Assembly (NCBI GenBank): GCA_049975365.1
Contig: JBNGDS010000004.1
Coordinates: forward strand, 17,150 to 81,149
From: Desulfomonilia bacterium
GTDB taxonomy: Bacteria > Desulfobacterota > Desulfomonilia > UBA1062
Length of the DNA: 64,000 bases
Direction of reading: 5' to 3'
Part shown: piece after piece, positions 3,046-40,261 of the stretch
Numbering within the stretch: the first letter of the stretch is position 1
How the letters are laid out: every line of letters starts with the position of its first letter
Program-made: the position numbers and the translations under genes
The notes under the pieces: model-generated
Seen by the model: only the letters and a program-made list of their open reading frames with translations
The model's database searches: none
What the model was told of the DNA's origin: nothing

Positions 3046-3100
3046 AGTTCGCTCTCCTTTCTATGTGCTCTCGTTGCACGTATACGTATTCACGAGTGTG

Positions 3101-4929: not shown

Positions 4930-5066
4930 GATCTTCTCCCGGGGAGCTGAGTGAATCCGCTCGAAATCATTGTGTAAATAAGTTTGCAGGCTGAATAGGG
5001 GTGCTGTCGTGCACTCCCCCCCTGAATGAGACTATCTCCTGGGACTGAATCGAGAAAAAACCGCTG

Positions 5067-21852: not shown

Positions 21853-24731
21853 TCAGTCCTCCCGGATGATCTTTTTCAGGATCATGCTGAGATCCTGGAT
21901 CCTGTAGGGTTTTGCGATACCATCCCTGAACCCGTACTCCCGCGGGTTGGACATGATGGGATCAGGGGAGTATCCACTGGACACGATGGCCTTTACATGG
22001 GGATCGATCTTCAGAAGTTCCTGGATGCATTCCCTGCCTCCCATGCCATTGTTCACCTCGAGGTCGAGGATCACGATGTCGAATGGTCTCCCCTGCCGGT
22101 ATGCAGTCTGGTATTGCCTGATGGCTTCACCACCGTCCTTGGCGAACGAGACCTCATACCCGAGGTGGGTAAAGATGCTCTGGGCGAGGTCTCTGATGAA
22201 CTCTTCGTCATCCATGAAGAGAATTGATCGCTTCTTGTGGATTGATTTTTGGTGTCTTTTCTTTTTCTCCGGCTCTTGACCGGGAGATGCGGGCAGGTAA
22301 AAGGTGATGGTGATTCCCCTGGACGGGTTCAACGCGGCAGTGATATGGCCCCCGTGTTTCTGGAGAATGGAGTATGACGTGGCGAGGCCAAGACCGTAGC
22401 TCTGCTTCTTGGTCGTAAAGAACGGGTCGAAGATCTTTTCGAGGTGCTCGCTCGGCATTCCGCTCCCCGAATCTTCGATGGCAATTTTCACGTACGGGCC
22501 TTCCGTCATAGGCAAGGAACTCTTTTTCGGCAGCACGGTGTTTTCCGCCCTGATCATGACAACCCCGCCGTCTGGCATCGACCGGACCGCATTGGCGACA
22601 ATGTTGCCGATTACCTGTGTTATTTGTACTTCATCGATCTCAACACTCCAGAGACCGTCTGGGAGAGAGAATTCTGCCTTGACGTTCGTATCGATCAGCG
22701 ATCGGGTGACAGTATCACGCAGAAAGACCTCAGCAGGGATCTTCTTCTTGAGGGGGCTTCCTCCCTTTGCAAACGTCAGGAGCTGACTTGCAAGGTCTTT
22801 TGCCTTGAGCGAGGCATTTTCTATGTCTATGCAGCGTTTATACGCCTTGTCCGAGTTGTCAAGGAGCATCTTGGCAAGGGATATATATTCCCCAGGATCA
22901 CTGTCAGGAGATTGTTGAAATCGTGGGCAATACCCCCGGCAAGCATGCCAAGAGCCTCGAGTTTTTCCCTTCTCTGAAGTTCCTCGTCGAGGATCTTTCT
23001 TTCCGTGACATTCCTGGTGATTTCGATTGCGCCCCTCACGGTGCCGCCGGTGTCCTTCAACGGAAATGCACGAATCTCCCAGAGAAACCCGTCAGGAGTG
23101 GTCTGGACTCCTTCGTGAACCAGGCCATCCTGCAGGGACCTCACCATGGGGCAATTTTCACATGGGGATTTTCTCGCGTGCCAGAGCTCGTAGCAGGTCT
23201 TCCCGATCAACTCTGCAGGACTCATGTCAACTGAAAGAGCAGCCGCATCGTTTGCCCAGACGATCCTGAGATCTGCATCCTGCAGGGTGATGTTGTCAGT
23301 AATGCCGTTGAGAACTACGTTCAGCTCCTGGGCCATCTGCCGGTACCGGTCTTCACTCTTTTTCAAGTCGCTCTCTGCCTGCGTCCGTACCTTGACCTCA
23401 TTCTTCAGGAGACGGTTTGTCTGCTTCAAGGCAGATGTCCTCTCACGGACCATTTCTTCTAGCCTGTCGTAGGCCTTTTTCAGGGCTTCTTCAGCCTTCT
23501 TGCGCGACGTGATATCAGTGAGCAGTCCGAAGATTCTTTTTCTATCACCATCGATCGCCGGTCTGCTGAATGAGCTGACCCAGCAGAATGAACCGTTCTT
23601 TCTCATGATGCGGTATTCAAACGGCATGATCTTGCCTGTGAGCAGATCGGTGAATCGTGACGTCAAGCCATTGAGATCATCGGGGTGGATGAAATCAGTG
23701 AAGTGCCGTCCGGTCATCTCTTCCGGGGTGTACCCGAGGATCTTCTTCATGACCGGGCTTGCGTAGGTGATACGGCCGTCCTCATCCAGAGAAAACAGGG
23801 CGTCATTGATGTTCTCCACGAGTTCTCTGAAGTTCTTTTCACTCCTCCTGAGCGCCTCTTCGGTCTTGTTCTGATGGGTTATATCCCGCACGATTGCCGT
23901 AATGAGCGTTCTCTCCTCCAAATGAAATGGGCTGAGGACCACATCCGTGAGGAAAAGGGAACCGTCTTGCTTTCTGCAGAGCCATTGGAATTTTTCCACC
24001 CCTTTTGACAGTGCATTCCTGAAGTGGGTTTCCAGTGCGGTATCCGAGAGAGAGCCATCTTTCTGCCGGGGTGGAGACAACTCACTGTAGTGCAGATTCA
24101 ACAGTCGAATTTTTTCATCATAGCCGAAGATCCTGAGCGTGGCAGAATTGCAGTCTATGACCCGATCGCGGTCCAGAATAATGATCGCATCGTTGGATGA
24201 TTCGAACAGAGAGGAGTATTTCTCGAGCGCCTGGATGAGACTGTTCTCCACGTACTTGGCTGTTGTGACGTCTCTCCCGGTGGAGAGATAGTGAGTGATC
24301 CTGCCGCTGTCATCGAAAATTCCACGGATAACCCACTCGTGGGGTCGTGGGGATCCATCGGCCCTGATGAAACTGAACACCGTTCTCTGCACAGGGTCTG
24401 TGTGGGCAAGCAGCTTCAGATAATTCGAAAGGACCTTCCTGTCTTCCCGGGGAATGGAATCATAGATGCTCGTCCCGGTTATCTCGTTGGATGCTCTATT
24501 GAGGTAGGAGCAGTACGATGCGTTTGCATAGGTGATCATCCCATGGGGAGTGAACATGCAGACAAGGTCGGGAAGAAGCTCCGCAATCTTCCGGGAGTGA
24601 TCGTGTACGCCCGATCCCTGTCCAGCCGACATAGTCTTGTCGAAACTCGTCATGCGTTCCACCCCTCTCCATACCCGGACCATGTCCGGGACAACGACAC
24701 TCCAAACGAGCCTGGAAGGCTGTTTTCTCAT
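21853..24731 (-). pseudogene. PAS-domain hybrid sensor histidine kinase/response regulator, interrupted by a frameshift at an (AT)4 run
   Basis: ORF 22827-24731 encodes about 4 PAS domains and the HisKA H-box (IAHDFNNLLTVILGNI), then runs out of frame. ORF 21853-22869 continues in another frame with SLAKMLLDNSDKAYKRCIDIENASLKAKDLASQLLTFAKGG, then HATPase_c and a receiver domain. Removing one AT unit from ATATATAT at 22881-22888 restores a single roughly 950 aa reading frame. Confidence 0.75.
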
Positions 24732-25106
24732 TGTATGTTACCCCATATTGCCGGAATGTCAAACACAAGCTGAAATGAAGACAATTCAAATTCTTGTTTT
24801 GAGCAAAAAAAATGGGATGGCGGTTAGGGCATAGGACGCGCCACCCCTAAGAGGAGGTTAAAAAACGTCTTGTGGTATACGTTATTTTAGATGGTTTATT
24901 CTCTAAAAGGATGCAGGAGATACTCTATCTTCACGGGTGATACCGGAACAAAAAAAAGATGAGCGAACTGCCTGTAAAACAGCTCCAGATAAGGGATTAC
25001 AGGCTATCAAAAAACGCCTTGGGTATGAATAACACTATTCTCCTATGGAATTAAAAATATTCAAAAACTGAACAATTACAATGACATATGAAACAATTTT
25101 TTCTTT

Positions 25107-26057
25107 TTATAGTGTTTTATACTTGATGCGGGAGCGGGAGCGAGAAAAAAACAGGGACCATCCTGTCTTCAGGGACCCGGGAACCAGCGAGAACGCACCA
25201 GATGCCTCTGCAACAGGGGTGAATCCACACAGTGAACAGTCCATATTTCCACGACCCCTGACATAACACCCCTGGTCTATGGATCCGTCCGGGTTGACAT
25301 TTGCCAGCAGCCAGTCGTGGCATGTCCAGTGACCGGTCATCATGGCATTGAGGCTCCATGCAGAGTTCATGATGGGGTACCCTGACCGTTTCAGATTCAT
25401 GACAGACATCAGTGCCTGCCTCCTGTCATCAGTGCTCAGGGTCAGGTCGTCTTCACCCTGCCCATAGGGGTAGAATATCTGCACGGTGATTCCTTTTACA
25501 GCAGTCAGTGAGAGCATTGTGGTCGCACACTCACCGAACTCCCTCCAATTGAGCCTGTTCAGGGTATAGTGGACCAAGAGGTTCGGATGCCGGCAGGAGG
25601 AGATTTCGTGAAGAACACGCTGGTAGGAATTGCTTCTCAGAAAATTGTGGGTGTCCTCCAGCCCATCAACGCTCACCCACAAGATGTCGGCGGGCACATC
25701 GAATCCGAGGGTTCCGTTCGTTGTCGCCCCCACACAGGGGAACAATTCGCGTGCCGAGGTGACGAGATCACGGAACGTGTGGTCCCCATCCGACCACAGA
25801 AAGGGCTCACCCCCCTCAAAGATCACGATAAGACACCCTCTTTTCTTGAGCTCACGCAGTGATCTCATGGCAGTTTCCCAGTCAATGTGCGAATGTATCT
25901 CAGACGATCGCGTGTGGAACGGGCAGGCCCTGCAGGAAAGATTGCACCGGTAGGTCAGCTTGAAGCTTGCAATCAGGGGGATCTTGTGCCCCAGAATCCT
26001 GGTTCGTACGGAAAACCAGGCAAGATCGGTGAGCGATGTCAGGAAGCCTCGGGCCAC
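25107..26057 (-). CDS. Radical SAM protein with C-terminal SPASM/twitch-like Cys cluster
   Basis: CNLSCRAC (CxxxCxxC) near the N-terminus. C-terminal GCYVRGRGNMDCSLCGF. Overlaps the upstream CoA-ligase gene by 19 nt. Confidence 0.75.
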   Translation of the reverse strand: MARGFLTSLTDLAWFSVRTRILGHKIPLIASFKLTYRCNLSCRACPFHTRSSEIHSHIDWETAMRSLRELKKRGCLIVIFEGGEPFLWSDGDHTFRDLVTSARELFPCVGATTNGTLGFDVPADILWVSVDGLEDTHNFLRSNSYQRVLHEISSCRHPNLLVHYTLNRLNWREFGECATTMLSLTAVKGITVQIFYPYGQGEDDLTLSTDDRRQALMSVMNLKRSGYPIMNSAWSLNAMMTGHWTCHDWLLANVNPDGSIDQGCYVRGRGNMDCSLCGFTPVAEASGAFSLVPGSLKTGWSLFFSRSRSRIKYKTL

Positions 26058-27538
26058 GCCAGGCTGTTCTCCATTCCACGGATGAGGTGCTGATAGCCAA
26101 CCACCTTTGCCAGGGCGTGGACAGCCCGGTCCGGAGACGGGTAGGGCATGATCCCGTGTGCATCGAGGAACTGCACTGGATTCCCGTCCATGACAACGTC
26201 GAACCCCATGATGTCGATAACCGGGATAATGGGCCTCTCGTACCTGCGGATCAGGTCCACGATGAGCTCGAAAAGCTTTCTCTCTTCAGAGATCATGATG
26301 TCTGCAAATTCCTTCACAGCATCGGTTGGGATAGCCTCCGATTTCAGCCACGTTCGTGCGCGGAGAGACATGTACCCAAGTCCCATCAGGAACACAGCAT
26401 CCGTGAGAGAATTCTCCATGAGAATTTGTACAGCGTCTGTGATGACGCTCACCCGGCCTGGTGCCACGAGATCGATGGGATTCCCCCTGCTCCAGTAGGC
26501 AGGAAGGATCCTGTCAAGCATCTCGATAACAGGTTTTTCAAGGGGTTCGACAGAGAGGCCCTCGTGGATGCACATATCCGTGGCGATGACCCCCCAGCCG
26601 CCCCCCAGAGTGATGATTCCGACCTTGTTGCCCGTGGGCCGTGGCTGCATGAACATGCCGGCCACGTCCACCATTTCATCCATGGTTTCCACCTGGATGA
26701 TCCCAGCCTGGCGGCACATGGATGTGAAGATCTCGTCACTGCCGGCTATTGCGCCGGTATGGGACATGGCAGCTACTGCCCCCCTGTCTGTTCTGCCTCC
26801 CTTGATGAGGATGATGGGCTTTCGTGGGGAAATTCTCCGTGCCGCTTCAAAGAATCTCCTGGGCTGCCGCAGTCCCTCGACATACAGACAAATGACCCGT
26901 GTTTTCTCGTCGTGCTCGAGGTATTCCAGGAAATCTTCGGTGGTGAGGTCGGCCTCGTTGCCCGAGCTGATGAGGCGGCTGATGCCTATTCTCCTGCGCA
27001 GAAAGCGGTATGATATGGACGTCCCCAGGTTTCCGCTCTGGACAATGAGGCCGATACCGCCGGGTGTCAGCTGCATGGAGCCCATGAGAGCGTGCATGAT
27101 TGAAGGGTACGCGCTGAAGACCCCCATGGTGTTCGGCCCGATAAGGCGCATACCGCCTGACCGTGCCAATTCCACGATCTCACGCTCCCTGCGCGCTCCC
27201 TTCTCTCCTGTCTCGGAAAATCCTGCGGTAATGATGATTCCCGCAGGGATCTTCTTCTGGATGCACTCTTTGATGGTTTCGAGAACCAGGGAATCCTTCA
27301 CAACAATGACGGCGAGATCGATGTGGTTCTCGATCTCATCGAGGCTGGTGTACATCTTTTTTCCAAACCAGTCGCCGCCTCTGGGGTTGATGGGGTAGAG
27401 GTCTCCTGAATAGCCCCGCTTCACGATGTGGTGGAGGACATTGAACCCCCATTTGAAAATATCCTTCGAAGCCCCGATAAACGCGATGGATTTCGGTTCA
27501 AACAGGGGCCTCAACTCTGAGGTGCTCTTCATGGTCAA
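26039..27538 (-). CDS. ADP-forming acyl-CoA synthetase alpha-like (CoA-binding + succinyl-CoA-synthetase-like domains)
   Basis: 499 aa with N-terminal CoA-binding Rossmann (KSIAFIGASKD...YPINPRG) and a central ligase-CoA domain. No beta (ATP-grasp) partner seen nearby. Confidence 0.7.
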   Translation of the reverse strand: MTMKSTSELRPLFEPKSIAFIGASKDIFKWGFNVLHHIVKRGYSGDLYPINPRGGDWFGKKMYTSLDEIENHIDLAVIVVKDSLVLETIKECIQKKIPAGIIITAGFSETGEKGARREREIVELARSGGMRLIGPNTMGVFSAYPSIMHALMGSMQLTPGGIGLIVQSGNLGTSISYRFLRRRIGISRLISSGNEADLTTEDFLEYLEHDEKTRVICLYVEGLRQPRRFFEAARRISPRKPIILIKGGRTDRGAVAAMSHTGAIAGSDEIFTSMCRQAGIIQVETMDEMVDVAGMFMQPRPTGNKVGIITLGGGWGVIATDMCIHEGLSVEPLEKPVIEMLDRILPAYWSRGNPIDLVAPGRVSVITDAVQILMENSLTDAVFLMGLGYMSLRARTWLKSEAIPTDAVKEFADIMISEERKLFELIVDLIRRYERPIIPVIDIMGFDVVMDGNPVQFLDAHGIMPYPSPDRAVHALAKVVGYQHLIRGMENSLAWPEAS

Positions 27539-28347
27539 TATGTGCCTGGAAAGTTCGGCTTGCGTTGCTCCTTCTGGGCCTTCACGCCCTCGCGGGCATC
27601 TTCACTGGAGAAAATTGGCATACCGATCTCCACTTCCCGGATGAATGCCTCTCTGAATTCACGCATCCTCATTTCCCGCGAGAATTGAATGATGCCCTGG
27701 GTAGCGAGCGGCCCGTTTGACGCAATCTTATCAGCGAGCGCGAGAGCAGTTTCCATGAGTTTGTCCTTCTCAACCACCCTGTTGAGGAATCCCCACTCGT
27801 AGAGTGTCTTCGCGTCGAAGTTGCCTGCCGTGAGGAGAATTTCCAGCGCTCTGCAGGGGCCGACGTGCCTGGGCAGGAAGATATTGCCGCCACCGGTCGG
27901 CATGATACCGAGGCTTGCCTCCCTCATCTGGAAGAGCGCATCGGTTGATGCAACTCGCAGGTCAGCCCCCATGACCATCTCGAATCCACCGGTGAGACAG
28001 TATCCGTGGATGGCTGCTATGATGGGCTTGTTTGCATAGCTGATCTTGAGCATGGCCTCTCCGACACCCCTGCCGTCCCACCCCGAAATGATCCATTCCT
28101 CAGCCTCGTTCTCCGGTTTTCGCGCGCCCGTGAGGATCGGGATGGCGGTCTTGAGATCCATGCCTGCACAGAAGATGTTGGGAAGGGCTGAATAGAGTAC
28201 AGCCACCCTGATGTTCCTGTCCTCATTGATATCCTTCCACGTCTCGTGGAGTTCGAGGAGGATCCCGGGATCCAGTGCGTTGAGCTGCTTGGGACGGTTG
28301 AGACCCACTTTTGCGATGTGCCCGATCTTTTCATAGACGAGGTTCAT
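27535..28347 (-). CDS. Enoyl-CoA hydratase/isomerase (crotonase) family protein
   Basis: Crotonase fold motifs (LNRPKQLNAL ... CAGMDLK ... GGG). Start placed at the ATG after AAAGGGGGAAG (MNLVYEKIG), 7 codons inside the track ORF. Confidence 0.85.
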   Translation of the reverse strand: MNLVYEKIGHIAKVGLNRPKQLNALDPGILLELHETWKDINEDRNIRVAVLYSALPNIFCAGMDLKTAIPILTGARKPENEAEEWIISGWDGRGVGEAMLKISYANKPIIAAIHGYCLTGGFEMVMGADLRVASTDALFQMREASLGIMPTGGGNIFLPRHVGPCRALEILLTAGNFDAKTLYEWGFLNRVVEKDKLMETALALADKIASNGPLATQGIIQFSREMRMREFREAFIREVEIGMPIFSSEDAREGVKAQKEQRKPNFPGTY

Positions 28348-28524
28348 GGCTTCCCCCTTTTCATGCATGATATGATTGACAGTTCAGGTGTAGCGGTATG
28401 GGTAAGGTTTGTCAACATTGGGCAGATCATATCATAAAACAGTAATTACCAGGCACACCGCAACAGCCGGTATTCCAGCAGAATTCGTACCATTCGGCCG
28501 AGGATCGGAAGATCTGCGGCCGAA

Positions 28525-29340
28525 TCAAGCCTTGCGTATCTCTTGAAATATCTTCCGTGCGAAAATGGCTGCCCCCAGGGCCCCGATTATCTGGGGATCC
28601 ACCGGAAGCGGTGTGACCTCCATGTTGAGTATCCTGGCGAGGGCCTTGATGAGTCCCCTGTTCTTTGCGCAGCCTCCGGTTACCGTGACCTGTGGTCGCA
28701 TGCCGATCCTCTTGAGCAGGGTGAAGCACCGTTTCGAGACTGACGCCTGGATGCCTGCCGCCACATCTTCGGGAGGGTTGCGTCTGGCCAGCAGGCTTAT
28801 CACTTCACTCTCTGCGAAGACGCTGCACTGGGCGGTGATCGGGATGACCTTCTTCGCCTTCATGGAAAGCTCGGAGAACTCGTCGAGATCCATGCGGAAC
28901 GTCCTGCTCATGGCCTCGAAGAACCGTCCCGTGCCGGCGGCACACTTGTCGTTCATGGCAAACTCCAGGACCGATCCGTCGCTGTCGATGGCAATGGCCT
29001 TCACGTCCTGCCCGCCAATGTCCACGATGGTCTTGATACGGTGGTCGCAGGAAAAGGTTCCCATGGCATGGCAGCTGATCTCCGAGATGTTCTTGTCGGC
29101 AAAGACCACCTCGTTTCTCCCGTAACCCGTTCCCACGAGGTACGCGAGCTTCTTGTAGCCGCCCATGTCCGGCACCTGCGAGCAGGCCTTCTCCAGGGCA
29201 AGGATGGATGTCCGTTCAGGATCGATCTCGCTTGGGATAATGGATGTGGCCCTGATGGTGCCGCTTTCATCGATGATTACGGCTTTTCCCGTCGTCGATC
29301 CAACGTCACATCCGCCGAAGTAGGCATTGTTCTGGTACAT
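28525..29340 (-). CDS. BadF/BadG/BcrA/BcrD-type ATPase (HgdC-like activator/archerase), paralog 1
   Basis: GCDVGSTTGKAV N-terminal ASKHA motif and bridging-[4Fe-4S] Cys pattern. Shows about 45 % identity by eye to the two other copies. Confidence 0.85.
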   Translation of the reverse strand: MYQNNAYFGGCDVGSTTGKAVIIDESGTIRATSIIPSEIDPERTSILALEKACSQVPDMGGYKKLAYLVGTGYGRNEVVFADKNISEISCHAMGTFSCDHRIKTIVDIGGQDVKAIAIDSDGSVLEFAMNDKCAAGTGRFFEAMSRTFRMDLDEFSELSMKAKKVIPITAQCSVFAESEVISLLARRNPPEDVAAGIQASVSKRCFTLLKRIGMRPQVTVTGGCAKNRGLIKALARILNMEVTPLPVDPQIIGALGAAIFARKIFQEIRKA

Positions 29341-29351
29341 GCTGTCTCTCC

Positions 29352-30878
29352 TTACTGATCGAGACGGGGTGCCTTCATGACGTTCTCCATGAAGTGCTCC
29401 ACCTGTCTCATCATGTTGTCATGGGATACGATGCGCGGATCGCTCAGGTCGTAATCGAGGATGAGCAGAGGGATCCCCTTCTCTCGGCACTTCTCGCGCA
29501 GGATACCGTTCATGGCCTGGCCGCTCTTGCAGCCCACATGGTTGGCAACCAAGACCAAGTCGAGGTCGAACTGCTTCACCATGCGAAAGATGTCGTCCAG
29601 GTAGTTCTCCGCAGGCCCCCGGGTATGGCGGACCATGGGGCCATGCATGACGATCCTGCTCCATCCGCGCAGCATGGACTCGGGTGTCGAGGTGTCGATG
29701 GGCTCGAGGTGGTTATAGCTCATGCTGTCATTCAGGATGGTCAGGCCATAAGTGCGTTCCGTCCAGTTGAATATGTCGGGGAAATGGAGAAAGGGCGGGT
29801 TCCAGCACACTGCCCGATACCGTTCGTTCACCGTGGCCGGGAGATTGTCCTCTAGGTTCTTCCGGGCCAGCTTCACCAGACGCTCGAAGTGCTTCGTCGA
29901 CTCCCTGAATTCGGGGGTCACGTTGAAGTGCCAGAGATGGCTCAGCCAAACGGCCTCGGAGGCAAGGGGGGCAGGCCTGACCCGAAGCATGTCCCACAGC
30001 TCCAGCTCCAGTTCCAGCATACGGTTGCGGTTTTCGCACATCTGCCTGAAGCGATCCCAATCCATGCGGCCGGGCGTGTGCTGCTCGAGGAATGCGATCA
30101 TACCCTTCACGTCTTCAACGAAGAGGTCCACTGCGCGTTCTGTGTGAAAATGATACGGCACGTCGAGGCGATAGATGGGTATACCGAAGGCCCTCTGGAA
30201 GAAGGAGTACGATGCCGCGCCAGCATCACAGGGAAGGTTGGAGCTCACGATGGCCGTGCCCCCCGGCATGTGGCCCTTGAGAACCATGCCGATGGTCACC
30301 TTGGGAAGGCTGCATGAATCCGGATTGATCCCCTCATTCTCCGCCTCGTCTATGTATTTCAGACAGACATCAGGATCCAGCATGGGAAGGACTATACCCA
30401 TGGCCTCGAGCAGATAGCACCTCAGTCCCATTGCATGAGCGATGTCAGGAGGGACCAGATCTTCGTTCAGGACCAGGCGGTCGGGGTCGAAGAACATCTC
30501 CCTGAGCAGCCACACGGTTCCTGCTACAATGGTGTGCATGGTCATGCAGACTGCATCGTGATAGCGGCCGGTCCTCGCCTGGAGGAACCGTCTCGCCAGG
30601 GCGTTCACCTTCAGTAATGTCAGGATCCAGGGATTCCGGATGAGGGTCCGAATGGATCTTACCGGGCCGAGGGTGAAGATATATTCAATGAGAAACCTCA
30701 TGATGACTGCATAGTTGAGAAGCCAGTACCACATGTATACGGCCAGATCCCTGGGGCTCCGCGTGTGTACGAGGTATTGCGCCAGAGAGTTGTCCCAGAG
30801 TTTTATCCCTGTTTCCCTCAGACTGGCGACCAGGAATTTTATGACAGCAATCATATTCTTCACGCCCGGAATCCTCAT
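29352..30878 (-). CDS. 2-hydroxyacyl-CoA dehydratase/benzoyl-CoA reductase superfamily subunit (HgdA/BcrB-like), long form
   Basis: Conserved Cys positions (PCDAG...). Pairs with the adjacent HgdB-like gene. Start chosen at an internal ATG (MRIPGV...) to avoid overlapping the upstream gene; the upstream ATG at 30956 is possible. Confidence 0.65.
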   Translation of the reverse strand: MRIPGVKNMIAVIKFLVASLRETGIKLWDNSLAQYLVHTRSPRDLAVYMWYWLLNYAVIMRFLIEYIFTLGPVRSIRTLIRNPWILTLLKVNALARRFLQARTGRYHDAVCMTMHTIVAGTVWLLREMFFDPDRLVLNEDLVPPDIAHAMGLRCYLLEAMGIVLPMLDPDVCLKYIDEAENEGINPDSCSLPKVTIGMVLKGHMPGGTAIVSSNLPCDAGAASYSFFQRAFGIPIYRLDVPYHFHTERAVDLFVEDVKGMIAFLEQHTPGRMDWDRFRQMCENRNRMLELELELWDMLRVRPAPLASEAVWLSHLWHFNVTPEFRESTKHFERLVKLARKNLEDNLPATVNERYRAVCWNPPFLHFPDIFNWTERTYGLTILNDSMSYNHLEPIDTSTPESMLRGWSRIVMHGPMVRHTRGPAENYLDDIFRMVKQFDLDLVLVANHVGCKSGQAMNGILREKCREKGIPLLILDYDLSDPRIVSHDNMMRQVEHFMENVMKAPRLDQ

Positions 30879-30888
30879 GTTCAGTCGT

Positions 30889-32022
30889 TTATTTGCCAAG
30901 ACTCTCGATGAATGCCTGTACACGGGTACGCAGCTGGCCTTCTCCTCCGGTGGCATATTCCCGCTCGAGTTTCAGGACCGGCACGCCTTTCTTTCTGAGT
31001 GCACTGACCAGGGGCATGGTATCCACTCCCCAGAGATCACAGAACTTGATGATCTCAATGACCACGCCGTCTGCACGGTATTCCTCTACTGTGTCGAGGA
31101 TGTTTTCCAGCCGGCGATCGAAGTCCTCCATCATGCGGGGGCACAGGGTCTTCTTGAACGTGTGCTCGGCCAGGCACCTGATGGGATGTACGCCTTGTTC
31201 CACAGGCATGAGCCCGGGAATGGACCCGGTGCAGAACCGGTCGGCCACCACGAGCCCTCCCTGTGATTCGATGATGGCGATGAATGCAGGATCGTGCAGA
31301 TGCGCCCCAACCATCATGAGGCGTGCACGGTAGTCAGCATTCCCTTCTTCGTGTTCGATCTCCCTGTAGAATGACTCGATGGCGGGGAGGATCAGATCCT
31401 TCGGAGATGCGAGGGATGCCATGACGATCCGGTGAAAATCAGCTCCAGTCAGGGGGGGATGCAGTCTTTTCCTCAGGTCGCCTATAGAACGCATGATGCT
31501 GGAGAACCTGTTCCACCGGTCTATGGCCTCCTCGATGGAAGCAGTGCCCATATTGACACCGAAATAGTCAGAGAGTTTCTCCGCCAGGATCGAGAGTTCA
31601 TCGGCAAGCCATGAAGTGGTGACGTCGTTCACCTTGCGCGGCACGTCGATGACGTGACTGAAAGCCGGCTTCCTGAGGTATTCGAGGTTGTCTATGAGGC
31701 GCTGCATGTGAGCGCACGAAGGCACGAAGACCCACCCCTGGATGAGATCGTACCGGTCGTCCATAACAAACTCGAGCAGGCTGCGGGTATACGAACAGGT
31801 CAGCGACGACATGTAGTTGTCGGCGATCTCGGTCCCGGCAATTCCAGGGGCCATCAGACGAACCGGAAAGAGCCTGTCTGCCATGAGCAGCGCCTCGGGC
31901 ACGAAGGAACAGGAATACCCAATGGGTATGCGGCAGTCCTGTGAGGCCTGTTCGACAAGGGTGTTCTGAGGGCTTTCCAGGAGATCATCGAACAGGTGCA
32001 TGGTCTTGGTAGGCATCCTCAC
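30889..32022 (-). CDS. 2-hydroxyacyl-CoA dehydratase superfamily subunit (HgdB/BcrC-like)
   Basis: N-terminal IGYSCSFVPEALLMADRLFP and C-terminal IKFCDLWGVDTMPLVSALRKKGVPVLKLEREY match the HgdB pattern (GCLPYYVPEEL ... FCDPEE...GIP). Confidence 0.75.
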   Translation of the reverse strand: MRMPTKTMHLFDDLLESPQNTLVEQASQDCRIPIGYSCSFVPEALLMADRLFPVRLMAPGIAGTEIADNYMSSLTCSYTRSLLEFVMDDRYDLIQGWVFVPSCAHMQRLIDNLEYLRKPAFSHVIDVPRKVNDVTTSWLADELSILAEKLSDYFGVNMGTASIEEAIDRWNRFSSIMRSIGDLRKRLHPPLTGADFHRIVMASLASPKDLILPAIESFYREIEHEEGNADYRARLMMVGAHLHDPAFIAIIESQGGLVVADRFCTGSIPGLMPVEQGVHPIRCLAEHTFKKTLCPRMMEDFDRRLENILDTVEEYRADGVVIEIIKFCDLWGVDTMPLVSALRKKGVPVLKLEREYATGGEGQLRTRVQAFIESLGK

Positions 32023-32037
32023 AGCTACGTTCTCCCC

Positions 32038-32808
32038 TTATGTCAGTACGCCCATGGTTTCGAGGATGTGTTCAACAACGCCCAGGGTGGGGGAGGTGTC
32101 CGGGAGCTCCCTTAAAGACGTTCCCCTGAAATCGAAATCCCTGATGAGGTCGTCCTCTGCAATCCATCCGTAGATGGGTAGACCGGTCCTCGATCTGATG
32201 TCATTCACCTCTGCCTGGCTCTTCACCCGGTTGAGCACGAGCCCCAGGCTCCTGAAATCAACGGCCTTGTTGTCATGCGCAACATGGGCTATGGCGCCAA
32301 CAACTCCTAGACCTTTGGCCGAGGTGTCCGAGATGAGTACCAGGTGATCGACGGTCTTCATGACTCGGCGGTTGATCTGCTCCACACCTGCCTCGCCGTC
32401 AATGATGACCACATCGAACGCATAAGCAAGTTCTACAAGGATGTCCTTGAGCAGTGAATTAACCTTGCAGTAGCACCCTTCATCCTCCGGCCTTCCGATG
32501 GCGAGCATGGCAAACCCGTCCTGCTCGTGAAGCGCATCGAACACCTCGTAGTCGAGCTGCCTCAGTGTCTGTGGCGCTCCCTGTGATGTGCCTTTTCTGA
32601 TCTGGGAGATAAGCCCCTTTCTTATGTCGTCCACGGTTTTCCGGACAACCACCCCAAGGGCCACGGCAAGGCCGCACGCCGGGTCCGCATCGATGGCCAG
32701 GATCTTCCTGTTCCCGTTTTCGCTCAGAAGCTTCACCATGACGGCTGCCACTGAGGTCTTGCCTACACCCCCTTTGCCGCACAGCGCGATTCTCGTGGTA
32801 TCACTCAT
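32038..32808 (-). CDS. CooC/MinD/Mrp-family P-loop ATPase (putative metallocentre or Fe-S maturation ATPase)
   Basis: Deviant Walker A (CGKGGVGKTSVAA) and the IDADP motif. Length and pattern resemble CooC/AcsF-type ATPases. Confidence 0.8.
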   Translation of the reverse strand: MSDTTRIALCGKGGVGKTSVAAVMVKLLSENGNRKILAIDADPACGLAVALGVVVRKTVDDIRKGLISQIRKGTSQGAPQTLRQLDYEVFDALHEQDGFAMLAIGRPEDEGCYCKVNSLLKDILVELAYAFDVVIIDGEAGVEQINRRVMKTVDHLVLISDTSAKGLGVVGAIAHVAHDNKAVDFRSLGLVLNRVKSQAEVNDIRSRTGLPIYGWIAEDDLIRDFDFRGTSLRELPDTSPTLGVVEHILETMGVLT

Positions 32809-33538
32809 TTCTTGCCTCTCTCTTCTTGCTCTGCATAGAAAGCCTCATGGATTTGAGCTGCTCCGCATCGGCACATACATCCTGGTATTCGCAGGATTCG
32901 CAGTCGAAATCGAGCTCGAGGGCCATCTTGTCCATGGCCGCAATGATCCTTGCAGCCGGGGCGACGATTTCGCGCAGCTCAGTAACATCTTCGGGTGACG
33001 AGGTGACCATGATCACTTCCACGGATTGGACATAGTCCCTGGCGTGGAACAGCCTCATGAGTGCCGATGCGAGTATCTGCGTTGAGAATCCCGACTGGAT
33101 CGCCTCCCTGCTGATTCTGCACCACTCCTTCTGGTACTGGGACACGGCCCTGATCATGAACCCCTTCAGATCGAGGTCGTAACGGAGAAAGTCCATGTCA
33201 CGGTGCCGATCGTAAGTATTCTCTTCAGTGAAGCCGACCACCCCTGCCAGGACCACCTTTCCGAAGGGCAATGCCGGGTTCCCGGTTTCAGTGAAATCCG
33301 GACCGACGAGGGTGATACGTCCGTGCGAGACTTCGGCCAGGTCTCCCGACCAGAGCAGACTGCTCACTGATTCCACATCAGGGCTTCCCAGCTCGAGGCC
33401 CAGGTCTTCTTTCATCACGATGCCCCTGTGGCCGCCAACGGGCCAGGTGAATGCGGGGTGCTCCGACCAGCAGCGTTTATTCGGACGGGACTCGATGAAG
33501 TCACGCACTTTGTGGATGATGTCTAAGAAGAGTTCCAT
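32801..33538 (-). CDS. Hypothetical protein with C-terminal CxxCx5C motif, co-transcribed with CooC-like ATPase
   Basis: 245 aa with C-terminal DFDCESCEYQDVCAD. 8-nt overlap with the CooC-like gene. I do not recognise a family. Confidence 0.5.
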   Translation of the reverse strand: MELFLDIIHKVRDFIESRPNKRCWSEHPAFTWPVGGHRGIVMKEDLGLELGSPDVESVSSLLWSGDLAEVSHGRITLVGPDFTETGNPALPFGKVVLAGVVGFTEENTYDRHRDMDFLRYDLDLKGFMIRAVSQYQKEWCRISREAIQSGFSTQILASALMRLFHARDYVQSVEVIMVTSSPEDVTELREIVAPAARIIAAMDKMALELDFDCESCEYQDVCADAEQLKSMRLSMQSKKREARNE

Positions 33539-33555
33539 GTTACCGGATACAGTTC

Positions 33556-34341
33556 CTAGCTGTCCCTTGCAGCCATCTCACGTGCCATGACAGCCGCCCC
33601 CAGGGCGCCGATGATCTGAGGGTCAGTCTCCATCTTCCTGAGTTTCACCCCAAGGGCCTCTTCAAGGGCGCTGAACATGCCGATATTCTTCGCTACCCCG
33701 CCGGTCATGGTGATTTCTCTGGAGAGCTCGATCCCCTTGGCAAGGGATGCGACCCGGTGCGCCATGGCCCTGTGGAGGCCGTGGATGATGTCGGGGATAT
33801 CTCTGCCGTTGTTGATGAGGGAGATGATTTCCGTCTCGGCAAACACAACGCACTGGTTGGAGATCGTCACGGGATTCCGTGCCTGGAATGAAAGTTCACC
33901 CATGTCCTCGAGGCATACACCCAAAGCACTTGCCATGATCTCGAGAAATCTCCCGGTACCGGATGCACATTTATCGTTGTAGGCATAGCGGATCACGTTC
34001 CCGTTCTCATCCAGCCGGATGGCCTTGGCATCCTGCCCTCCGATGTCGATGACCATGCGGACCTCCGGGATGAGCCACTGGGCGCCCATCCCGTGGCAGG
34101 CGATCTCGGATTCGACTGCAGTGGAAAATGGGATGTGGTTTCTTCCATATCCGGTTCCGACGCAGGATTTGATCTCGCTCAGCGGTATACCTGCCTGTGC
34201 AAGGGCTGCACCCATAACTTCCCGGGCAGATTCTTCCGGCTCGGGGCGGGCGAGAATGACTTCAGAGGCAACGATGTCTCCGTTTTTCATGATGACGGCC
34301 TTGGCACTCAGGGATCCAACATCACATCCTGCAACGTACAT
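33556..34341 (-). CDS. BadF/BadG/BcrA/BcrD-type ATPase (HgdC-like), paralog 2; candidate BcrD-position subunit
   Basis: YVAGCDVGSLSAKAV N-terminus, length 261 aa. Last gene of the C-B-A-D-ordered set. Confidence 0.85.
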   Translation of the reverse strand: MYVAGCDVGSLSAKAVIMKNGDIVASEVILARPEPEESAREVMGAALAQAGIPLSEIKSCVGTGYGRNHIPFSTAVESEIACHGMGAQWLIPEVRMVIDIGGQDAKAIRLDENGNVIRYAYNDKCASGTGRFLEIMASALGVCLEDMGELSFQARNPVTISNQCVVFAETEIISLINNGRDIPDIIHGLHRAMAHRVASLAKGIELSREITMTGGVAKNIGMFSALEEALGVKLRKMETDPQIIGALGAAVMAREMAARDS

Positions 34342-34345
34342 CTGT

Positions 34346-35125
34346 TCACCCTCCTATCTTCTCACGCGCATACACAGCCGCACCCAGGGCTCCGACGAGC
34401 TGCGGATCGATCCTCAGACGCCGCACCTTCACGTCGAGCATCCGCTCGAGGGCAGCAACGACACCGGCATTCTTTGCCACTCCACCTGTCATGCAGACAT
34501 CCTTTTCCACACCCACACTGCGGGCCAGGATCGCCACTCTGGCAGCCATGGCCTGGTTGACGGCGGATGCGATATCGGCCTTGGATCGTTTTTCATTCAG
34601 GTGGTGAATGACTTCGGCCTGGGCCCACACCGTGCAGGTCGATGCGAGGGAGAGCGGGTTTTTTGCCTGGTGTGAAAGCCTTCCCAGTTCATCGAGTTCA
34701 AGACCCAGTATATGTGCCATCACCTCGAGAAACCGGCCAGTTCCGGCAGCGCACTTGTCGTTGGTAAAGAACTTTACCACGCCGCCTTTCGCATCGAGTT
34801 TTATTGCCTTGCAGTCCTGTCCGCCGACATCGATGACGGTCCTCGCTGTAGGCATGAGCCATTGTGCGCCTTTCGCATGACAGGTAATCTCTGAGACAGC
34901 CGTGCTCACGAACGGAATCCGTTCCCGTCCATAGCCGGTTCCTACACAGAACGTGATCGTGTCCATGGAAAGGCCCGCAGACGAGAGAGCGGCTTCCATC
35001 ACCTCGCGGGCGGATGCTTCAGGGTTGAACCCAGACCTGATGATCGCCTGGGACAGAACCCGTTTATTGTTGAGAATGACTGCCTTGGTGGTCAGAGAAC
35101 CCACGTCACAACCGGCAACAATCAT
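34346..35125 (-). CDS. BadF/BadG/BcrA/BcrD-type ATPase (HgdC-like), paralog 3; candidate BcrA-position subunit
   Basis: MIVAGCDVGSLTTKAV, 259 aa. GAGGAGG RBS lies inside the upstream small ORF. 4-nt gap to paralog 2. Confidence 0.85.
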   Translation of the reverse strand: MIVAGCDVGSLTTKAVILNNKRVLSQAIIRSGFNPEASAREVMEAALSSAGLSMDTITFCVGTGYGRERIPFVSTAVSEITCHAKGAQWLMPTARTVIDVGGQDCKAIKLDAKGGVVKFFTNDKCAAGTGRFLEVMAHILGLELDELGRLSHQAKNPLSLASTCTVWAQAEVIHHLNEKRSKADIASAVNQAMAARVAILARSVGVEKDVCMTGGVAKNAGVVAALERMLDVKVRRLRIDPQLVGALGAAVYAREKIGG

Positions 35126-35355
35126 GCGACTATCCTCCTCAGTTGAAAGAATTCGCTCGTTGTGTCTGTCAGGATCACGCTCATCATTAACCTGTCGCGA
35201 CAGCGCATTAGGTTGCAGATCCCAGGGACCGCGCTGGGCATGATACTCATGAGGTCGATGCGTTCAGAGACCGGCCGGTCCTGGTTCGGTGCATCATGGA
35301 TGATGGTTCCAAAGATATTCTCCTCCGGATACCTGAGATCCTGGTTCTCGTTCAT
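35122..35355 (-). CDS. Small hypothetical protein (77 aa), translationally coupled (ATGA) to the ATPase gene
   Basis: The ORF's TGA stop overlaps the ATG of the 34346-35125 gene, and its 3' end carries that gene's RBS. Weak own RBS (AAGGA). May be real or a read-through artefact. Confidence 0.3.
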   Translation of the reverse strand: MNENQDLRYPEENIFGTIIHDAPNQDRPVSERIDLMSIMPSAVPGICNLMRCRDRLMMSVILTDTTSEFFQLRRIVA

Positions 35356-35365
35356 CAACGCGTCC

Positions 35366-35608
35366 TTACAGGGTCATACTGATGCGTGCACCCTGCCTGA
35401 TCCTCTGGATATAGAGCTTCGAGCGCTCTTTCAGCACAACCATGTCCGTCTTGCGCTCGATGTACTGCAGTGCAGGGATGGCTTCTTCCCTGAACAGGGT
35501 CAGGCTGTCGATTGCCCGCTGCCGCTCCACCAGGACCCTGGAGCTGTCCATGGCAATGTTCTTCAAGACCTCGATTGCGATCGCTTCCTTCTCATTTTCC
35601 GTCTCCAT
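35366..35608 (-). CDS. Small hypothetical protein (80 aa), helical/charged
   Basis: AGGAGG RBS 6 nt upstream of ATG. Plausible composition. Sits between the HgdA-like and ATPase genes. Confidence 0.5.
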   Translation of the reverse strand: METENEKEAIAIEVLKNIAMDSSRVLVERQRAIDSLTLFREEAIPALQYIERKTDMVVLKERSKLYIQRIRQGARISMTL

Positions 35609-35727
35609 ACATCCTCCTGAACCTTATTCAGGCAACCCTGACAGACATCCGGATCTCGGATATCGGTTCCATCTCCTATCAGAGAGAGTGTATTCAGCCC
35701 CTATGACACCTGTGCTCGACATCCTTG

Positions 35728-37131
35728 TCATGTGCCGAGCCCCCGCAGGTGTATGAACTCGCTTATTTTGTCGGTCACAGCTTCCCATGACTGGACACGG
35801 TCGTCGAACGCATCTGCATAGAGAATCAGGGTCGGGATTCCGCTGCGCTCGAGATCCCGGGCATAGGATTTGACCATTCCCCAGGTGTTCCTGCACCCGA
35901 TGGTCCCAAAATAGGCCACGAAGTCTGCCTTCATGACCCTGGTCATGATGAGCGTGTCGTCGAGCCACATGTTGGGCGCGTCATACGGGCCCCGGATGGA
36001 TTTCACCATGGGCATGCGTGACATCTGCATAGCGAGCGAATCGATCATGTCCTCGAGGGTGTCTCGTTTCATCGTGAACACGGCATCTTCCCGTTCACTG
36101 CTGTAGGGTGCCTCGTCTTCCCAGAAGGTGCTCAGGATGCAGCCCAGGTGCGAGATCTCGTTGCGGTCAAGAAAAGACCACAGCCTCAGGTCCGTGGTGT
36201 AGTGATCGATGTAGGAAAAAAACCCCCGGAGGCGTTCTCTCCCTGTGCTCATGCCGGAGACCCCTCTGGCGGCGTTCTCTTTGATCCTTTTCAGCATGGA
36301 CCGGAGCAGATCGGTGAAGTCTTTCGTCCCCCCCATGAGAAAGTTCCCGGAGTAGAGAAAGAGGTTGAAGATCGGGGGGATGGGGGAGGGGACAAGCCGC
36401 TGAAATTCTGTGAATTCATTGATGAGTTCGGTCTGAAGCTCGATCTCGGCAACGATCTCCCTGAGCCTGTCGATATCCAGTCTGTTCCCTGTCTGCTCCT
36501 CGAGAAAGGATACAAGATTCATGAAATCCTGCCTGTGAAACATGCCGGCCCGCTCATCGGTTAAAGTCGGGGGGTAGCAGAGCTGGTAGAAGGGGATATC
36601 AAGGTACGCGGAGGCGAACGAGTAGGAGTTGGCGTTCGTATCGCAGATGCCGGGTGAATCGCAGATGATCATGTCAGGTCTGACCCCGAGCCCCGCCAGA
36701 TATGCGCCGAGGGCACCGCGCTGTGATGAACAGGATGTCTCGGTGAATCCCACCTCGCAGCAGTAGTCAAGGTATTCCCCGGTTCCACGCTGGAGTATGA
36801 ACGTGCCGAACACGGTCATGGGCTCAAGCAGGAGTGGAACGATATCGAAGGCGTACAGGATCGGTGGAGCGAAGCAGAAGGTTGTCATGGCCACTTTTCT
36901 GCCGTTGTCATGGGCAGAGAGGATGGTTTGCAGATAGTTTGCGAGGAGTTTCATGAGCAGAATACCCGGTTCTCCCTGGCGAATGATGGCATCAAGGGCA
37001 TCACGGAAATGGGGGATGAGACTGAGCAGCGTCTCATACTCCTTGGATGAACCGTCGTAGGTAACAGAGGCGTTCTCGATGATGCTCCAGATGTTCCAGT
37101 CGTAATTGTACTCTCTGGTTTCCCGTTTCAT
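35728..37131 (-). CDS. Benzoyl-CoA reductase/2-hydroxyacyl-CoA dehydratase superfamily subunit (HgdA/BcrB-like)
   Basis: 467 aa. VAMTTFCFAPPILYAFDIVPL and multiple conserved Cys (CDSPGICDT) follow the HgdA/BcrB architecture. Confidence 0.8.
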   Translation of the reverse strand: MKRETREYNYDWNIWSIIENASVTYDGSSKEYETLLSLIPHFRDALDAIIRQGEPGILLMKLLANYLQTILSAHDNGRKVAMTTFCFAPPILYAFDIVPLLLEPMTVFGTFILQRGTGEYLDYCCEVGFTETSCSSQRGALGAYLAGLGVRPDMIICDSPGICDTNANSYSFASAYLDIPFYQLCYPPTLTDERAGMFHRQDFMNLVSFLEEQTGNRLDIDRLREIVAEIELQTELINEFTEFQRLVPSPIPPIFNLFLYSGNFLMGGTKDFTDLLRSMLKRIKENAARGVSGMSTGRERLRGFFSYIDHYTTDLRLWSFLDRNEISHLGCILSTFWEDEAPYSSEREDAVFTMKRDTLEDMIDSLAMQMSRMPMVKSIRGPYDAPNMWLDDTLIMTRVMKADFVAYFGTIGCRNTWGMVKSYARDLERSGIPTLILYADAFDDRVQSWEAVTDKISEFIHLRGLGT

Positions 37132-37148
37132 GCGTCAATCCTTATCTT

Positions 37149-38282
37149 TTATGCAATCCTCTCCATGAAGGCATCCACGCGCATCTTAACCCTGCCTGTC
37201 TCAACCAGGGGACCGTATTCCCGTTCCATCCGCATACAAGGGATCCCGGCAGCCTCGAGGTCACGCTCGAAGATGCCGTTTTCCGAACCGTGGAGATCGC
37301 AGAAGCGTATGTTCTGCAGGATGACCCCGTCGATGCGGACCTCCTCTATCCGTTCCATGATGTAGGAGAGCCTGTCTCTGTAGCAGCCGAACATCCTGGG
37401 ACATGACTTGTGGCTGAGGTAGCGCTTCGCGAGGGCAAAGACAGGGTCTTCCTTCTCGTCAACGAGGTCCCGGTAGGACCGCGACCCGAAGCACATGGTG
37501 TCTGCCACCACGATGCCGCCGGATTCCTCGATCAGGCGGACAAATTCCAGGTCGTCGTTTGTGCTGCCCACGATCATGAGCCGTTTCCTGCCATCGAGAA
37601 CAGAGGGGGCCTCTTTGAGTTCAGAGATGACATTCTTAAGCAGGTCTGTATAGCGCTCCCTCGGCAGTGCAAACCCTGCGAGAATGACAGCCGTGGTATC
37701 CTCGCCGGTTATGGCAGGGGTATCAGATGCCCTCATCTCGTCGAGCTCGATGAGGAGTCTCCTTCCTTCGTTGTACAGTTTGATGGATTCTTTGAGTGCC
37801 TTCTTGGTGATCTTCACACCAAAGTGCTCCTCGATGCTCTTGATGAAGAGCTTCAGTTCGTCCACGAACCATGCAATGCTGTAGTCGGTCACCTTGTGTG
37901 GTACACCCATGTAGTGAAAGTATGAGGGCAGGACTCCGGGGTAGTCGTCTCCTGCCTTTCTCCAGCATTCGTCGAGCCTGCGCATGGAATCGCACCCGTT
38001 CATGATGATCGCCCCGTCGAGGAAGGTGTACGCACCTTGTCCGGCAAGCTGCAGGATGCACTTGGGAAAACTGCAGATAACCGGACCAAAGTAGGTGTCA
38101 CCGATGGACAGAGAGGTTGTCCCGATTCCGCGCATCCTGAAGGGCAGCATGCCTGCTGCGTGGATGATCTCTTCAGGCATATACGTGCACGGGTAGCCTA
38201 TGACCCTTTTCCCGGCATCCTTCCATTGGGTGACGTACTGGTTTGATATGCTCCGGGCGATGTCTTTGAGTTCGTTGATCAT
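37149..38282 (-). CDS. Benzoyl-CoA reductase/2-hydroxyacyl-CoA dehydratase superfamily subunit (HgdB/BcrC-like)
   Basis: 377 aa. VIGYPCTYMPEEIIHAAGMLPF ... IRFCDLHGSENGIFERDLEAAGIPCMRMEREYGP parallel HgdB (IGCLPYYVPEELVYAAGMVP ... FCDPEEMEYPDLKKALDAHHIP). Confidence 0.8.
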   Translation of the reverse strand: MINELKDIARSISNQYVTQWKDAGKRVIGYPCTYMPEEIIHAAGMLPFRMRGIGTTSLSIGDTYFGPVICSFPKCILQLAGQGAYTFLDGAIIMNGCDSMRRLDECWRKAGDDYPGVLPSYFHYMGVPHKVTDYSIAWFVDELKLFIKSIEEHFGVKITKKALKESIKLYNEGRRLLIELDEMRASDTPAITGEDTTAVILAGFALPRERYTDLLKNVISELKEAPSVLDGRKRLMIVGSTNDDLEFVRLIEESGGIVVADTMCFGSRSYRDLVDEKEDPVFALAKRYLSHKSCPRMFGCYRDRLSYIMERIEEVRIDGVILQNIRFCDLHGSENGIFERDLEAAGIPCMRMEREYGPLVETGRVKMRVDAFMERIA

Positions 38283-39565: not shown

Positions 39566-40235
39566 GAATGGAGTCCTCCGTTTTTGTATGTATCTGTTTC
39601 TGAAGCGCTTTCATTCCCGCTTCGGTCAGGTATGATTCGAACATGGTCATACTCCCGTCAGTGAGTGTACTGATCGCATCCTCCCTGGTGAATTGTTCTT
39701 CCATGAGGTAGCTGTGTCCCAGGTGCATGGCCATGCCCACTACCGCATAGGCAAGGGTATGGGGATTCACTCCCTCGATGATGCCGATATCCAGCCACGT
39801 CTGGATATCGTTGGCCAGATCCCGGGCAATATCGCTGTAATGACGCCACACATTGTTGTCCAGTTCCTCGTCGACCCCGAAACTGCCCCTCAGGAGGATG
39901 AGAAACTGCTGGCGGTGGCCATCGATGTAATCGAAGTAGGCGGTAAATGTCTCGATGAGTTTGGCGTAGCGGTCGTCCCTGTCCCAGATATTCACGGGCT
40001 CTCTGAGTTTCCTGATCCGATCCCTGAAGTCTTCGAAGTTCTGCCTGGTTATCTGGGCAAAGAGTTCACGTTTGTCCTGGAAGTAGTTGTAGAATGTCCC
40101 TGCAGACATCCCCACCTTCTTGACAATGTCCATGACTTGAGTGTTGTGGTAGCCACGCTGGCTGAAGAGTTCCTCGGCAGCCTCTATGATCACCTCTTTG
40201 GTAAAGGTCCGTTTCTTGTCGGCCAGGGTTGGCAT
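39552..40235 (-). CDS. TetR/AcrR-family transcriptional regulator (paralog A)
   Basis: HTH region FSQRGYHNTQVMDIVKKVGMSAGTFYNYFQDKRELF. Start placed at ATG (MPTLADKK) after AGAAAGGAA. Paralog of the regulator at 44289-44954. Confidence 0.85.
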   Translation of the reverse strand: MPTLADKKRTFTKEVIIEAAEELFSQRGYHNTQVMDIVKKVGMSAGTFYNYFQDKRELFAQITRQNFEDFRDRIRKLREPVNIWDRDDRYAKLIETFTAYFDYIDGHRQQFLILLRGSFGVDEELDNNVWRHYSDIARDLANDIQTWLDIGIIEGVNPHTLAYAVVGMAMHLGHSYLMEEQFTREDAISTLTDGSMTMFESYLTEAGMKALQKQIHTKTEDSIHGHH

Positions 40236-40261
40236 GTCTGGTTCCTTTCTGTTCGCGGATT

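Follow-up and report, generated by a model that had tools for sequence, protein, structure and literature searches.

What does a radical S-adenosylmethionine (SAM) enzyme do at the end of a long row of acyl-CoA genes, and what lies in the AT-rich spacer behind it? The question is raised by a 64,000-nt stretch of a Desulfomonilia bacterium contig (JBNGDS010000004.1), here called the window, for which an initial annotation made from the sequence alone had suggested that the enzyme might modify a protein of the cluster or a peptide encoded in the spacer. Open reading frame (ORF) calls together with Pfam and NCBIfam matches revealed a single long co-oriented gene row on the minus strand, with a TetR regulator first and the radical SAM gene (rSAM) last. 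Comparison with relatives tips the balance towards rSAM being a small-molecule-directed enzyme of the twitch type that ends an accretive, TetR-headed acyl-CoA operon, and the spacer probably contains an independent small RNA (sRNA) gene. The end of the gene row consists of the following genes.

25107 to 26057, minus strand: radical SAM enzyme (rSAM), 316 aa, with a CX3CX2C motif (C38/C42/C45), a twitch-like C-terminal domain and a GTG start.
26039 to 27538, minus strand: protein of 499 aa resembling the alpha subunit of ADP-forming acyl-CoA synthetases (ACD), with CoA_binding_2, Succ_CoA_lig and Ligase_CoA_2 domains.
27535 to 28368, minus strand: enoyl-CoA hydratase/isomerase (ECH, a crotonase), 277 aa, recognised by an ECH_1 match at 4.5e-49 and by synteny.

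The rSAM protein belongs to the Radical SAM superfamily (PF04055), with a Pfam Radical_SAM match and the CX3CX2C motif in the form CNLSCRAC; in this superfamily the motif sits in a partial TIM barrel and binds the [4Fe-4S] cluster that cleaves SAM. When 14 family members were aligned, seven cysteines proved invariant (C38, C42, C45, C246, C264, C274 and C277), and only four of these are C-terminal, spaced C-x17-C-x9-C-x2-C with no conserved cysteine after the CX2C. The C-terminal motif of SPASM domains has seven cysteines, CX9-15GX4C ... CX2CX5CX3C ... C. The enzyme had been described as a SPASM protein, a label that has to be withdrawn, as it has four instead of at least seven conserved C-terminal cysteines and no PF13186 match at an E-value of 0.01 or better in Pfam. 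While a SPASM domain binds two auxiliary clusters (PMC13459092), four cysteines fit one, and hence rSAM is predicted to be a twitch-type enzyme with one auxiliary Fe-S cluster. The best structural matches, BlsE and SkfB, agree with a twitch domain, for which cluster binding is a prediction. The twitch-domain enzymes BtrN, MoaA, SkfB and BlsE, named by Grell, Goldman and Drennan 2015 as cited in PMC13459092, share 16–22% sequence identity with rSAM, which reaches the cutoff of no named family. It differs from SPASM maturases (anSME, PqqE, AlbA and QhpD-like enzymes) in having neither the second half of the motif (CX2CX5CX3C...C) nor PF13186, an RRE domain or a precursor peptide.

When rSAM was compared with the NCBIfam models, 37 families were matched, and among the best 25 of these 37 all named families scored far under their cutoffs. 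The initial annotation had proposed a sorting into anSME-like, PqqE-like or QhpD-like enzymes; the anSME, PqqE and peptide-maturase models gave 20–50 bits against cutoffs of 300–850 (20–30 bits for PqqE and the peptide maturases alone). The nearest named family was PTO1314 (TIGR03961), of uncharacterised function, to which rSAM aligns over positions 18–266 of 332 with 107.7 bits against a cutoff of 306. The alignment to HpnH (TIGR03470) covered positions 12–276 of 318 with 48.1 bits against 225, and the C-terminal domain of HpnH, DUF3463, was matched just below threshold (29.2 against 31.3 in Pfam). Near full-length yet weak alignments were also obtained to ScmE and NirJ. No hopanoid genes (squalene-hopene cyclase or hpn) turned up among the window proteins scanned with Pfam. 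These alignments suggest that rSAM is distantly related to the HpnH/PTO1314 group while belonging to neither family. No glycyl-radical activase model was among the best 25 of 37 NCBIfam matches, and Pfam detected neither a ferredoxin-type insert nor an RRE/PqqD-type domain. The structural neighbours are twitch and SPASM enzymes acting on small molecules and peptides (BlsE, SkfB and GDGT-MAS); no solved structure is closely related in sequence. We found no literature on DUF3463, PTO1314 or this gene combination. The nearest named relatives are lipid- and small-molecule-modifying enzymes, and rSAM would most likely act on a small molecule, such as an acyl-CoA or a lipid-like compound, rather than on a peptide or protein. 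One family member of 547 aa (P0099), on a short JGI contig, carries an additional glycosyltransferase domain (PF13712), a fusion that may point, in the Rosetta-stone sense, to glycan or lipid chemistry.

Upstream of the conserved N-terminus of rSAM, GTG 26057 is the sole in-frame ATG, GTG or TTG, and the 19-nt overlap with the stop of the ACD-alpha-like gene (26039), reported by the initial annotation along with the CNLSCRAC motif, therefore stands. A public protein (P0001, 'MAG: Desulfomonilia bacterium') has the same length as rSAM and is 100% identical over 100% of the query; an exact-sequence look-up of rSAM returned no entry. In nearly all relatives the ACD-alpha stop lies 59–75 nt ahead of the codon for the invariant P27 of rSAM, meaning that the tight packing is conserved, and the junction is either an ATGA-type 4-nt overlap or a gap of at most 11 nt. 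The predicted translational and operonic linkage of the two genes, also part of the initial annotation, is supported by this conservation.

The ACD-alpha-like protein, whose true start is likely ATG 27532, has the full alpha architecture and the catalytic histidine motif of known ACD alpha subunits (Pyrococcus horikoshii 2csu, Ca. Korarchaeum ACD1 4xyl and Pyrococcus furiosus). It matched 2csu at 3.5e-85 and 4xyl at 3.4e-74, and its phosphohistidine motif MSHTGAIAGS is retained and aligned to SHTGSLAGS of 2csu. It differs from these subunits in its TIGR02717 score, 424 bits over positions 1–446 of 447 and under the cutoff of 567, in its position between a crotonase and rSAM, and in the lack of a beta subunit within 64 kb. 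Its description as an orphan was borne out in the window, as Pfam found no ATP-grasp_5 (ACD-beta-type) match among the ORFs of 200 aa or more that were scanned. A PPDK_N protein at the window end was ruled out as the beta subunit because it is a PEP-utilising-type enzyme. In P. furiosus alpha genes outnumber beta genes, five to two, and all ten combinations are active (PMC3942289). By analogy, the protein may most simply be seen as a substrate-specific alpha subunit that borrows a beta subunit encoded elsewhere, with which it would conserve thioester energy.

Further upstream the row contains two BCR/HAD modules. Module 1 comprises two HgdD-family subunits, two BcrAD-type ATPases, a CdhC-like protein and a CooC-like ATPase. 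Module 2 comprises two HgdD-family subunits and one activase, and is followed by the crotonase, the 499-aa ACD-alpha-like gene and the 316-aa rSAM. To establish which neighbours are constant, the rSAM family was followed across genomes: 961 matches at an E-value of 1e-5 or better were found in the protein collection and 251 tblastn-confirmed matches among species-representative genomes, and the best 80 of the 251 loci were analysed, with neighbour counts restricted to loci with enough flank (more than 9 kb of upstream sequence for HgdD). A crotonase orthologue was upstream of and co-oriented with rSAM in 14 of 57 species-level loci and an ACD alpha gene directly upstream in 9 of 57; of the 46 loci assessed for HgdD, 4 had a gene of that family in the 10 kb upstream of rSAM.

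A neighbour-joining tree of rSAM separated two clades, one of 26 loci including the window and one of about 55 loci. In the first, the order ECH-(ACD alpha)-rSAM was present in almost all members (about 24 of 26). The second consists of Smithella, Syntrophus and other Syntrophales, where rSAM has no constant neighbour; de novo clustering of the neighbours in this clade detected no constant partner, only lineage-level synteny (flavodiiron protein, rubrerythrin, MutS and IorAB). Within the clade of the window, the stretch from TetR to the genes downstream of rSAM or the spacer element described below (25107–40367 in the window) is a variable slot, with the following contents.

L005 and L018: TetR, then rSAM alone.
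L014 and L015: TetR-ECH-rSAM.
L022 and L041: TetR-x-ECH-ACD alpha-rSAM.
L008, L016 and L026: with BCR/HAD module 1 in addition.
L001 and L024: with BCR/HAD module 2 in addition.
L111: TetR, an amidohydrolase and the spacer element; rSAM absent.
L106: BCR/HAD module 1 and the spacer element; rSAM absent.

Because the content of the slot varies in this way among relatives, the BCR/HAD modules would be variable cargo inserted upstream and not partners of rSAM. The co-occurrence of rSAM with BCR/HAD operons that the initial annotation had proposed to check did not hold, with an HgdD gene in so few loci, rSAM on its own in Syntrophales and a BCR/HAD module in L106 that has no rSAM. For BCR/HAD this is the outcome that the initial annotation had named as refuting its idea; the crotonase and the ACD-alpha-like gene escape it, being linked to rSAM throughout one clade. 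The crotonase is the most constant neighbour in the rSAM's clade and also the best conserved, with identities across the same genomes of 71–89%, compared with 58–78% for ACD alpha and 53–60% for rSAM (74% in the closest relative). It appears to be a stable partner of rSAM within this clade only, the link being apparently real but clade-limited. The ACD-alpha-like gene would be a less constant second partner, packed closely enough for coupled translation. That BCR/HAD is not the partner and a highly conserved crotonase is reduces the number of experiments worth doing.

The same comparison bears on the proposal that rSAM matures or activates a cluster protein, be it a BCR/HAD subunit, an activase or the crotonase. 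Its apparent co-transcription at the operon end would suit such a role, and its structural neighbours include the protein or peptide modifiers anSME, SkfB and SuiB. The proposal is nevertheless poorly supported and we regard it as very unlikely: BCR/HAD genes accompany rSAM in only 4 of the 46 loci with enough upstream sequence, L106 has the module and no rSAM, the anSME, PqqE and peptide-maturase models scored far under their cutoffs, and neither a glycyl-radical activase match nor a ferredoxin-type insert was seen in the searches above. We also know of no BCR/HAD enzyme that needs a radical SAM maturase.

A closer association was also considered, in which rSAM, the crotonase and the ACD-alpha-like protein serve one CoA-thioester pathway with radical chemistry at the enoyl-CoA double bond, for example addition of the 5'-deoxyadenosyl group, as HpnH and MqnE perform it, or hydrogen abstraction next to the thioester. 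Crotonases make and handle enoyl-CoA, and the gene order, co-orientation and near-zero spacing are retained in almost every member of the clade despite the surrounding indels. The C-terminal domain of rSAM is HpnH-like (DUF3463), and HpnH adds a 5'-deoxyadenosyl group to an alkene (PMC13459092). However, about 55 species of the sister clade have rSAM without a crotonase or ACD alpha nearby, L018 retains rSAM after the loss of both partners, ACD alpha has been lost in at least six lineages according to the neighbour-joining tree, the HpnH model is far from its cutoff, and broad flank synteny weakens gene order as evidence. A shared pathway is less likely than not but a serious rival, and we favour a small-molecule substrate for rSAM without assigning all three proteins to one pathway.

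Several points weigh against the favoured interpretation as well. Synteny in the lineage also extends over the surroundings (ABC transporter, TetR, PNPOx-like gene, DUF8173 and znu genes), which makes adjacency moderate evidence only, and with the region from TetR through znu syntenic the ECH-rSAM adjacency could be inherited gene order. On the other hand, an adjacency that has outlasted many indels may reflect a tighter coupling than we assume. The structural neighbours include the peptide-modifying SkfB and SuiB, so that the substrate could also be a protein or peptide whose gene lies elsewhere, and no ACD beta subunit was found in the 64-kb window.

The family has at least 251 species-level representatives in Syntrophales and Desulfomonilia-like bacteria and is without a curated family assignment. 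These bacteria are key syntrophs in digesters and sediments.

The spacer downstream of rSAM (24732–25106, 375 bp) had correctly been singled out as unusually AT-rich; its GC content is 0.371, compared with 0.547 for coding sequence, the lowest among the window's 27 intergenic regions that measure 100 bp or more. Aligned with the closest orthologous spacer, that of L001, it was poorly conserved apart from one block of about 60 nt. Several ORFs of 12–35 codons are present and would be potential precursors if rSAM were a maturase of a ribosomally synthesised and post-translationally modified peptide. When orthologous spacers were compared, no conserved small ORF was found on either strand, except for a 12-codon frame over an invariant hairpin where most relatives have ATA in place of the start codon. 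ORFs behind a GAGGAGG site on the opposite strand differ among genomes in frame, length and start; for this reason a small protein or type I toxin from the spacer was also dropped. The protein has no RRE-type Pfam match, the maturase models scored 22–29 bits against 300–850, and in L005 and L018 the conserved element of the spacer is 4.3 kb from rSAM, past two opposite-strand genes. A peptide substrate encoded in the spacer, as the initial annotation had envisaged, is hardly credible.

The spacer would instead be ordinary regulatory DNA, made up of an operon end, an independent and strongly conserved sRNA-like gene that closes with an intrinsic terminator, and a promoter for the gene that follows. 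The features identified in the first two parts are as follows.

24965 to 24985, minus strand: weak terminator-like hairpin followed by a T-run (pattern scan and alignment with L001).
24915 to 24905, minus strand: upstream box 1, TGCATCCTTTT, seen in alignments and kept in diverged copies.
24894 to 24884, minus strand: upstream box 2, CCATCTAAAAT, with a -10-like TAAAAT (TATAAT in some relatives), kept in diverged copies.
24805 to 24877, minus strand: candidate small RNA of about 73 nt (conservation, covariance model and folding).
24859 to 24848, minus strand: invariant anti-Shine-Dalgarno-like stretch, AACCUCCUCUUA, seen in alignments.
24847 to 24814, minus strand: hairpin GGGGUGGCG/CGCCAUCCC with a C-rich loop, in which UGCCC is kept even in diverged copies.
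24812 to 24805, minus strand: run of 8 U, the end of the element.

The first hairpin lies downstream of the rSAM stop, is common only to the closest relative and is possibly the operon terminator. The remaining features constitute the conserved element, whose CU-rich, anti-Shine-Dalgarno-like seed is AACCUCCUCUU. Between box 2 and the invariant stretch is a variable 5' part of about 5–40 nt across copies; otherwise the element is near-invariant among some 35 distinct genomic and metagenomic sequences. Copies were located at 9166–9256 in L001, 13253–13343 in L005, 10968–11041 in L023 and in about 30 other loci. A 20-nt core, GGCGCGTCCTATGCCCTAAC, was present in 18 of 86 loci, each time as a single exact copy on the rSAM strand, and once in each of 40 metagenome contigs. 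As the contigs were found through the core, part of its invariance stems from that selection; no such selection applied to the flanks. Two of these contigs, L091 and L095, had unrelated flanks and were therefore treated as chance 20-mer matches. A covariance model scored the window copy at 82.9 bits and detected diverged copies in four more loci; the same search found no copy in the Syntrophales loci. Rfam 15 gave only a chance snoRNA match in 24500–25300 (18.5 bits against a gathering score of 80, E 0.34).

The predicted 73-nt RNA has a minimum free energy of -18.1 kcal/mol (z -2.74) in a fold that leaves most of the CU-rich stretch unpaired, and a hairpin followed by at least seven U was present in 36 of 36 copies. 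Paired positions accounted for 98.6% of the cells of the hairpin alignment, but with only two compensatory pairs, because the sequence hardly varies; covariation support for an RNA structure is accordingly thin. The element is not tied to rSAM, as the distance in L005 and L018 illustrates, and in 13 of the 40 metagenome contigs it was found without any of the window genes nearby, although several of these contigs are short or have the element near their end. Judged from conservation and folding, it is probably an independent sRNA gene. Trans-acting bacterial sRNAs with C/U-rich seeds, such as RsaE/RoxS, pair with Shine-Dalgarno sites. The candidate resembles these in its unpaired CU-rich AACCUCCUCUU, C-rich loop, intrinsic terminator and short transcript-like unit, but matches no Rfam family in sequence. 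Matches to the seed within the window were no more frequent than chance. To our knowledge no sRNA has been described in this lineage, for which the element would provide a conserved, single-copy regulatory RNA candidate that has no Rfam match.

Alternatively, the element could be a cis-acting leader or attenuator for the kinase, ADP-ribosylglycohydrolase or PNPOx-like genes, or a DNA-level protein-binding site. In syntenic loci the first of these genes always follows it in the same orientation, its stem is invariant rather than covarying, and pairing is conceivable between the upstream box GCAUCC and GGAUGG in the terminator stem. An antiterminator of this kind was rejected because in L026 the stem is changed (GGAAGG/CCTTCC) while the box is not. 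A separate conserved -35-like box also follows the U-run, the stretch transcribed ahead of the hairpin is short and differs in length among copies, and the invariant run of at least seven U argues for termination at the RNA level. With, in addition, the 13 contigs that have the element without these genes nearby (subject to the contig limits mentioned), a cis-acting role is conceivable but would be the less expected outcome, and an independent sRNA gene is preferred. Interpretations of the boxes and loop as a sigma-54 promoter or an integron attC site were rejected by eye, as spacing and consensus were unsuitable; in diverged copies, moreover, the loop differs.

The boldest combination would join the two ends of the locus: the crotonase, the ACD-alpha-like protein and an HpnH-related twitch enzyme would perform an undescribed radical step in anaerobic acyl-CoA metabolism (for example, 5'-deoxyadenosyl radical addition to, or rearrangement of, an enoyl-CoA), and the element would represent a new sRNA family, one that mimics the anti-Shine-Dalgarno sequence, in the Desulfomonilia-like lineage. 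That both parts hold is improbable.

The third part of the spacer adjoins a histidine kinase gene, whose promoter the initial annotation had placed there, in agreement with a promoter-like site.

24762 to 24735, minus strand: sigma-70-like promoter candidate for the kinase, TTGACA-16-TAACAT, with 10/12 matches (0.9 such sites expected by chance in the region).
21853 to 24731, minus strand: PAS hybrid histidine kinase (Pfam) in two ORFs (22827–24731 and 21853–22869), directly downstream of the spacer.

A TTTGAC box after the U-run is conserved in relatives and corresponds in the window to this plausible promoter. ATG 24731 is only 4 nt past the promoter-like -10 box, whereas ATG 24653 is preceded by the Shine-Dalgarno sequence GGAGAGGGG and is nearer to the start of similarity with the orthologue. 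ATG 24653 is the more likely start, and the non-coding stretch would then be about 453 bp, near the 472 bp of the orthologue. The orthologue in L001 is one intact gene of 934 aa; relative to it, the window has an extra AT in the (AT)n run GAATATATATCCC near 22880 (about 22875–22890), and the split reflects either a genuine frameshift or a mistake in the assembly.

The head of the gene row comprises the following genes.

39552 to 40367, minus strand: TetR regulator, at the head of the gene row.
38279 to 39565, minus strand: protein of 428 aa without a Pfam match, also at the head of BCR/HAD module 1 in L016 and L026.
40262 to 40948: protein of 228 aa inside the cluster, without a Pfam match.

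The CooC-like ATPase and the 245-aa CdhC-like protein, an acetyl-CoA synthase fragment, lie at 32038–33538 between both BCR/HAD modules, and these genes accompany module 1 in relatives. The HgdD subunits of the window matched the double-cubane reductase model weakly (147 bits against a cutoff of 350). A 602-bp gap of normal GC content (35126–35727) separates the activase from the HgdD467 gene, and it may be a remnant, because in L008, L016 and L026 this position is occupied by a second HgdD467-like gene. A separate cluster at 2–6110 encodes an AtuA-family protein, an HMG-CoA reductase-family protein and a TRAP transporter (DctM/DctP, with a 171-aa ORF in between).

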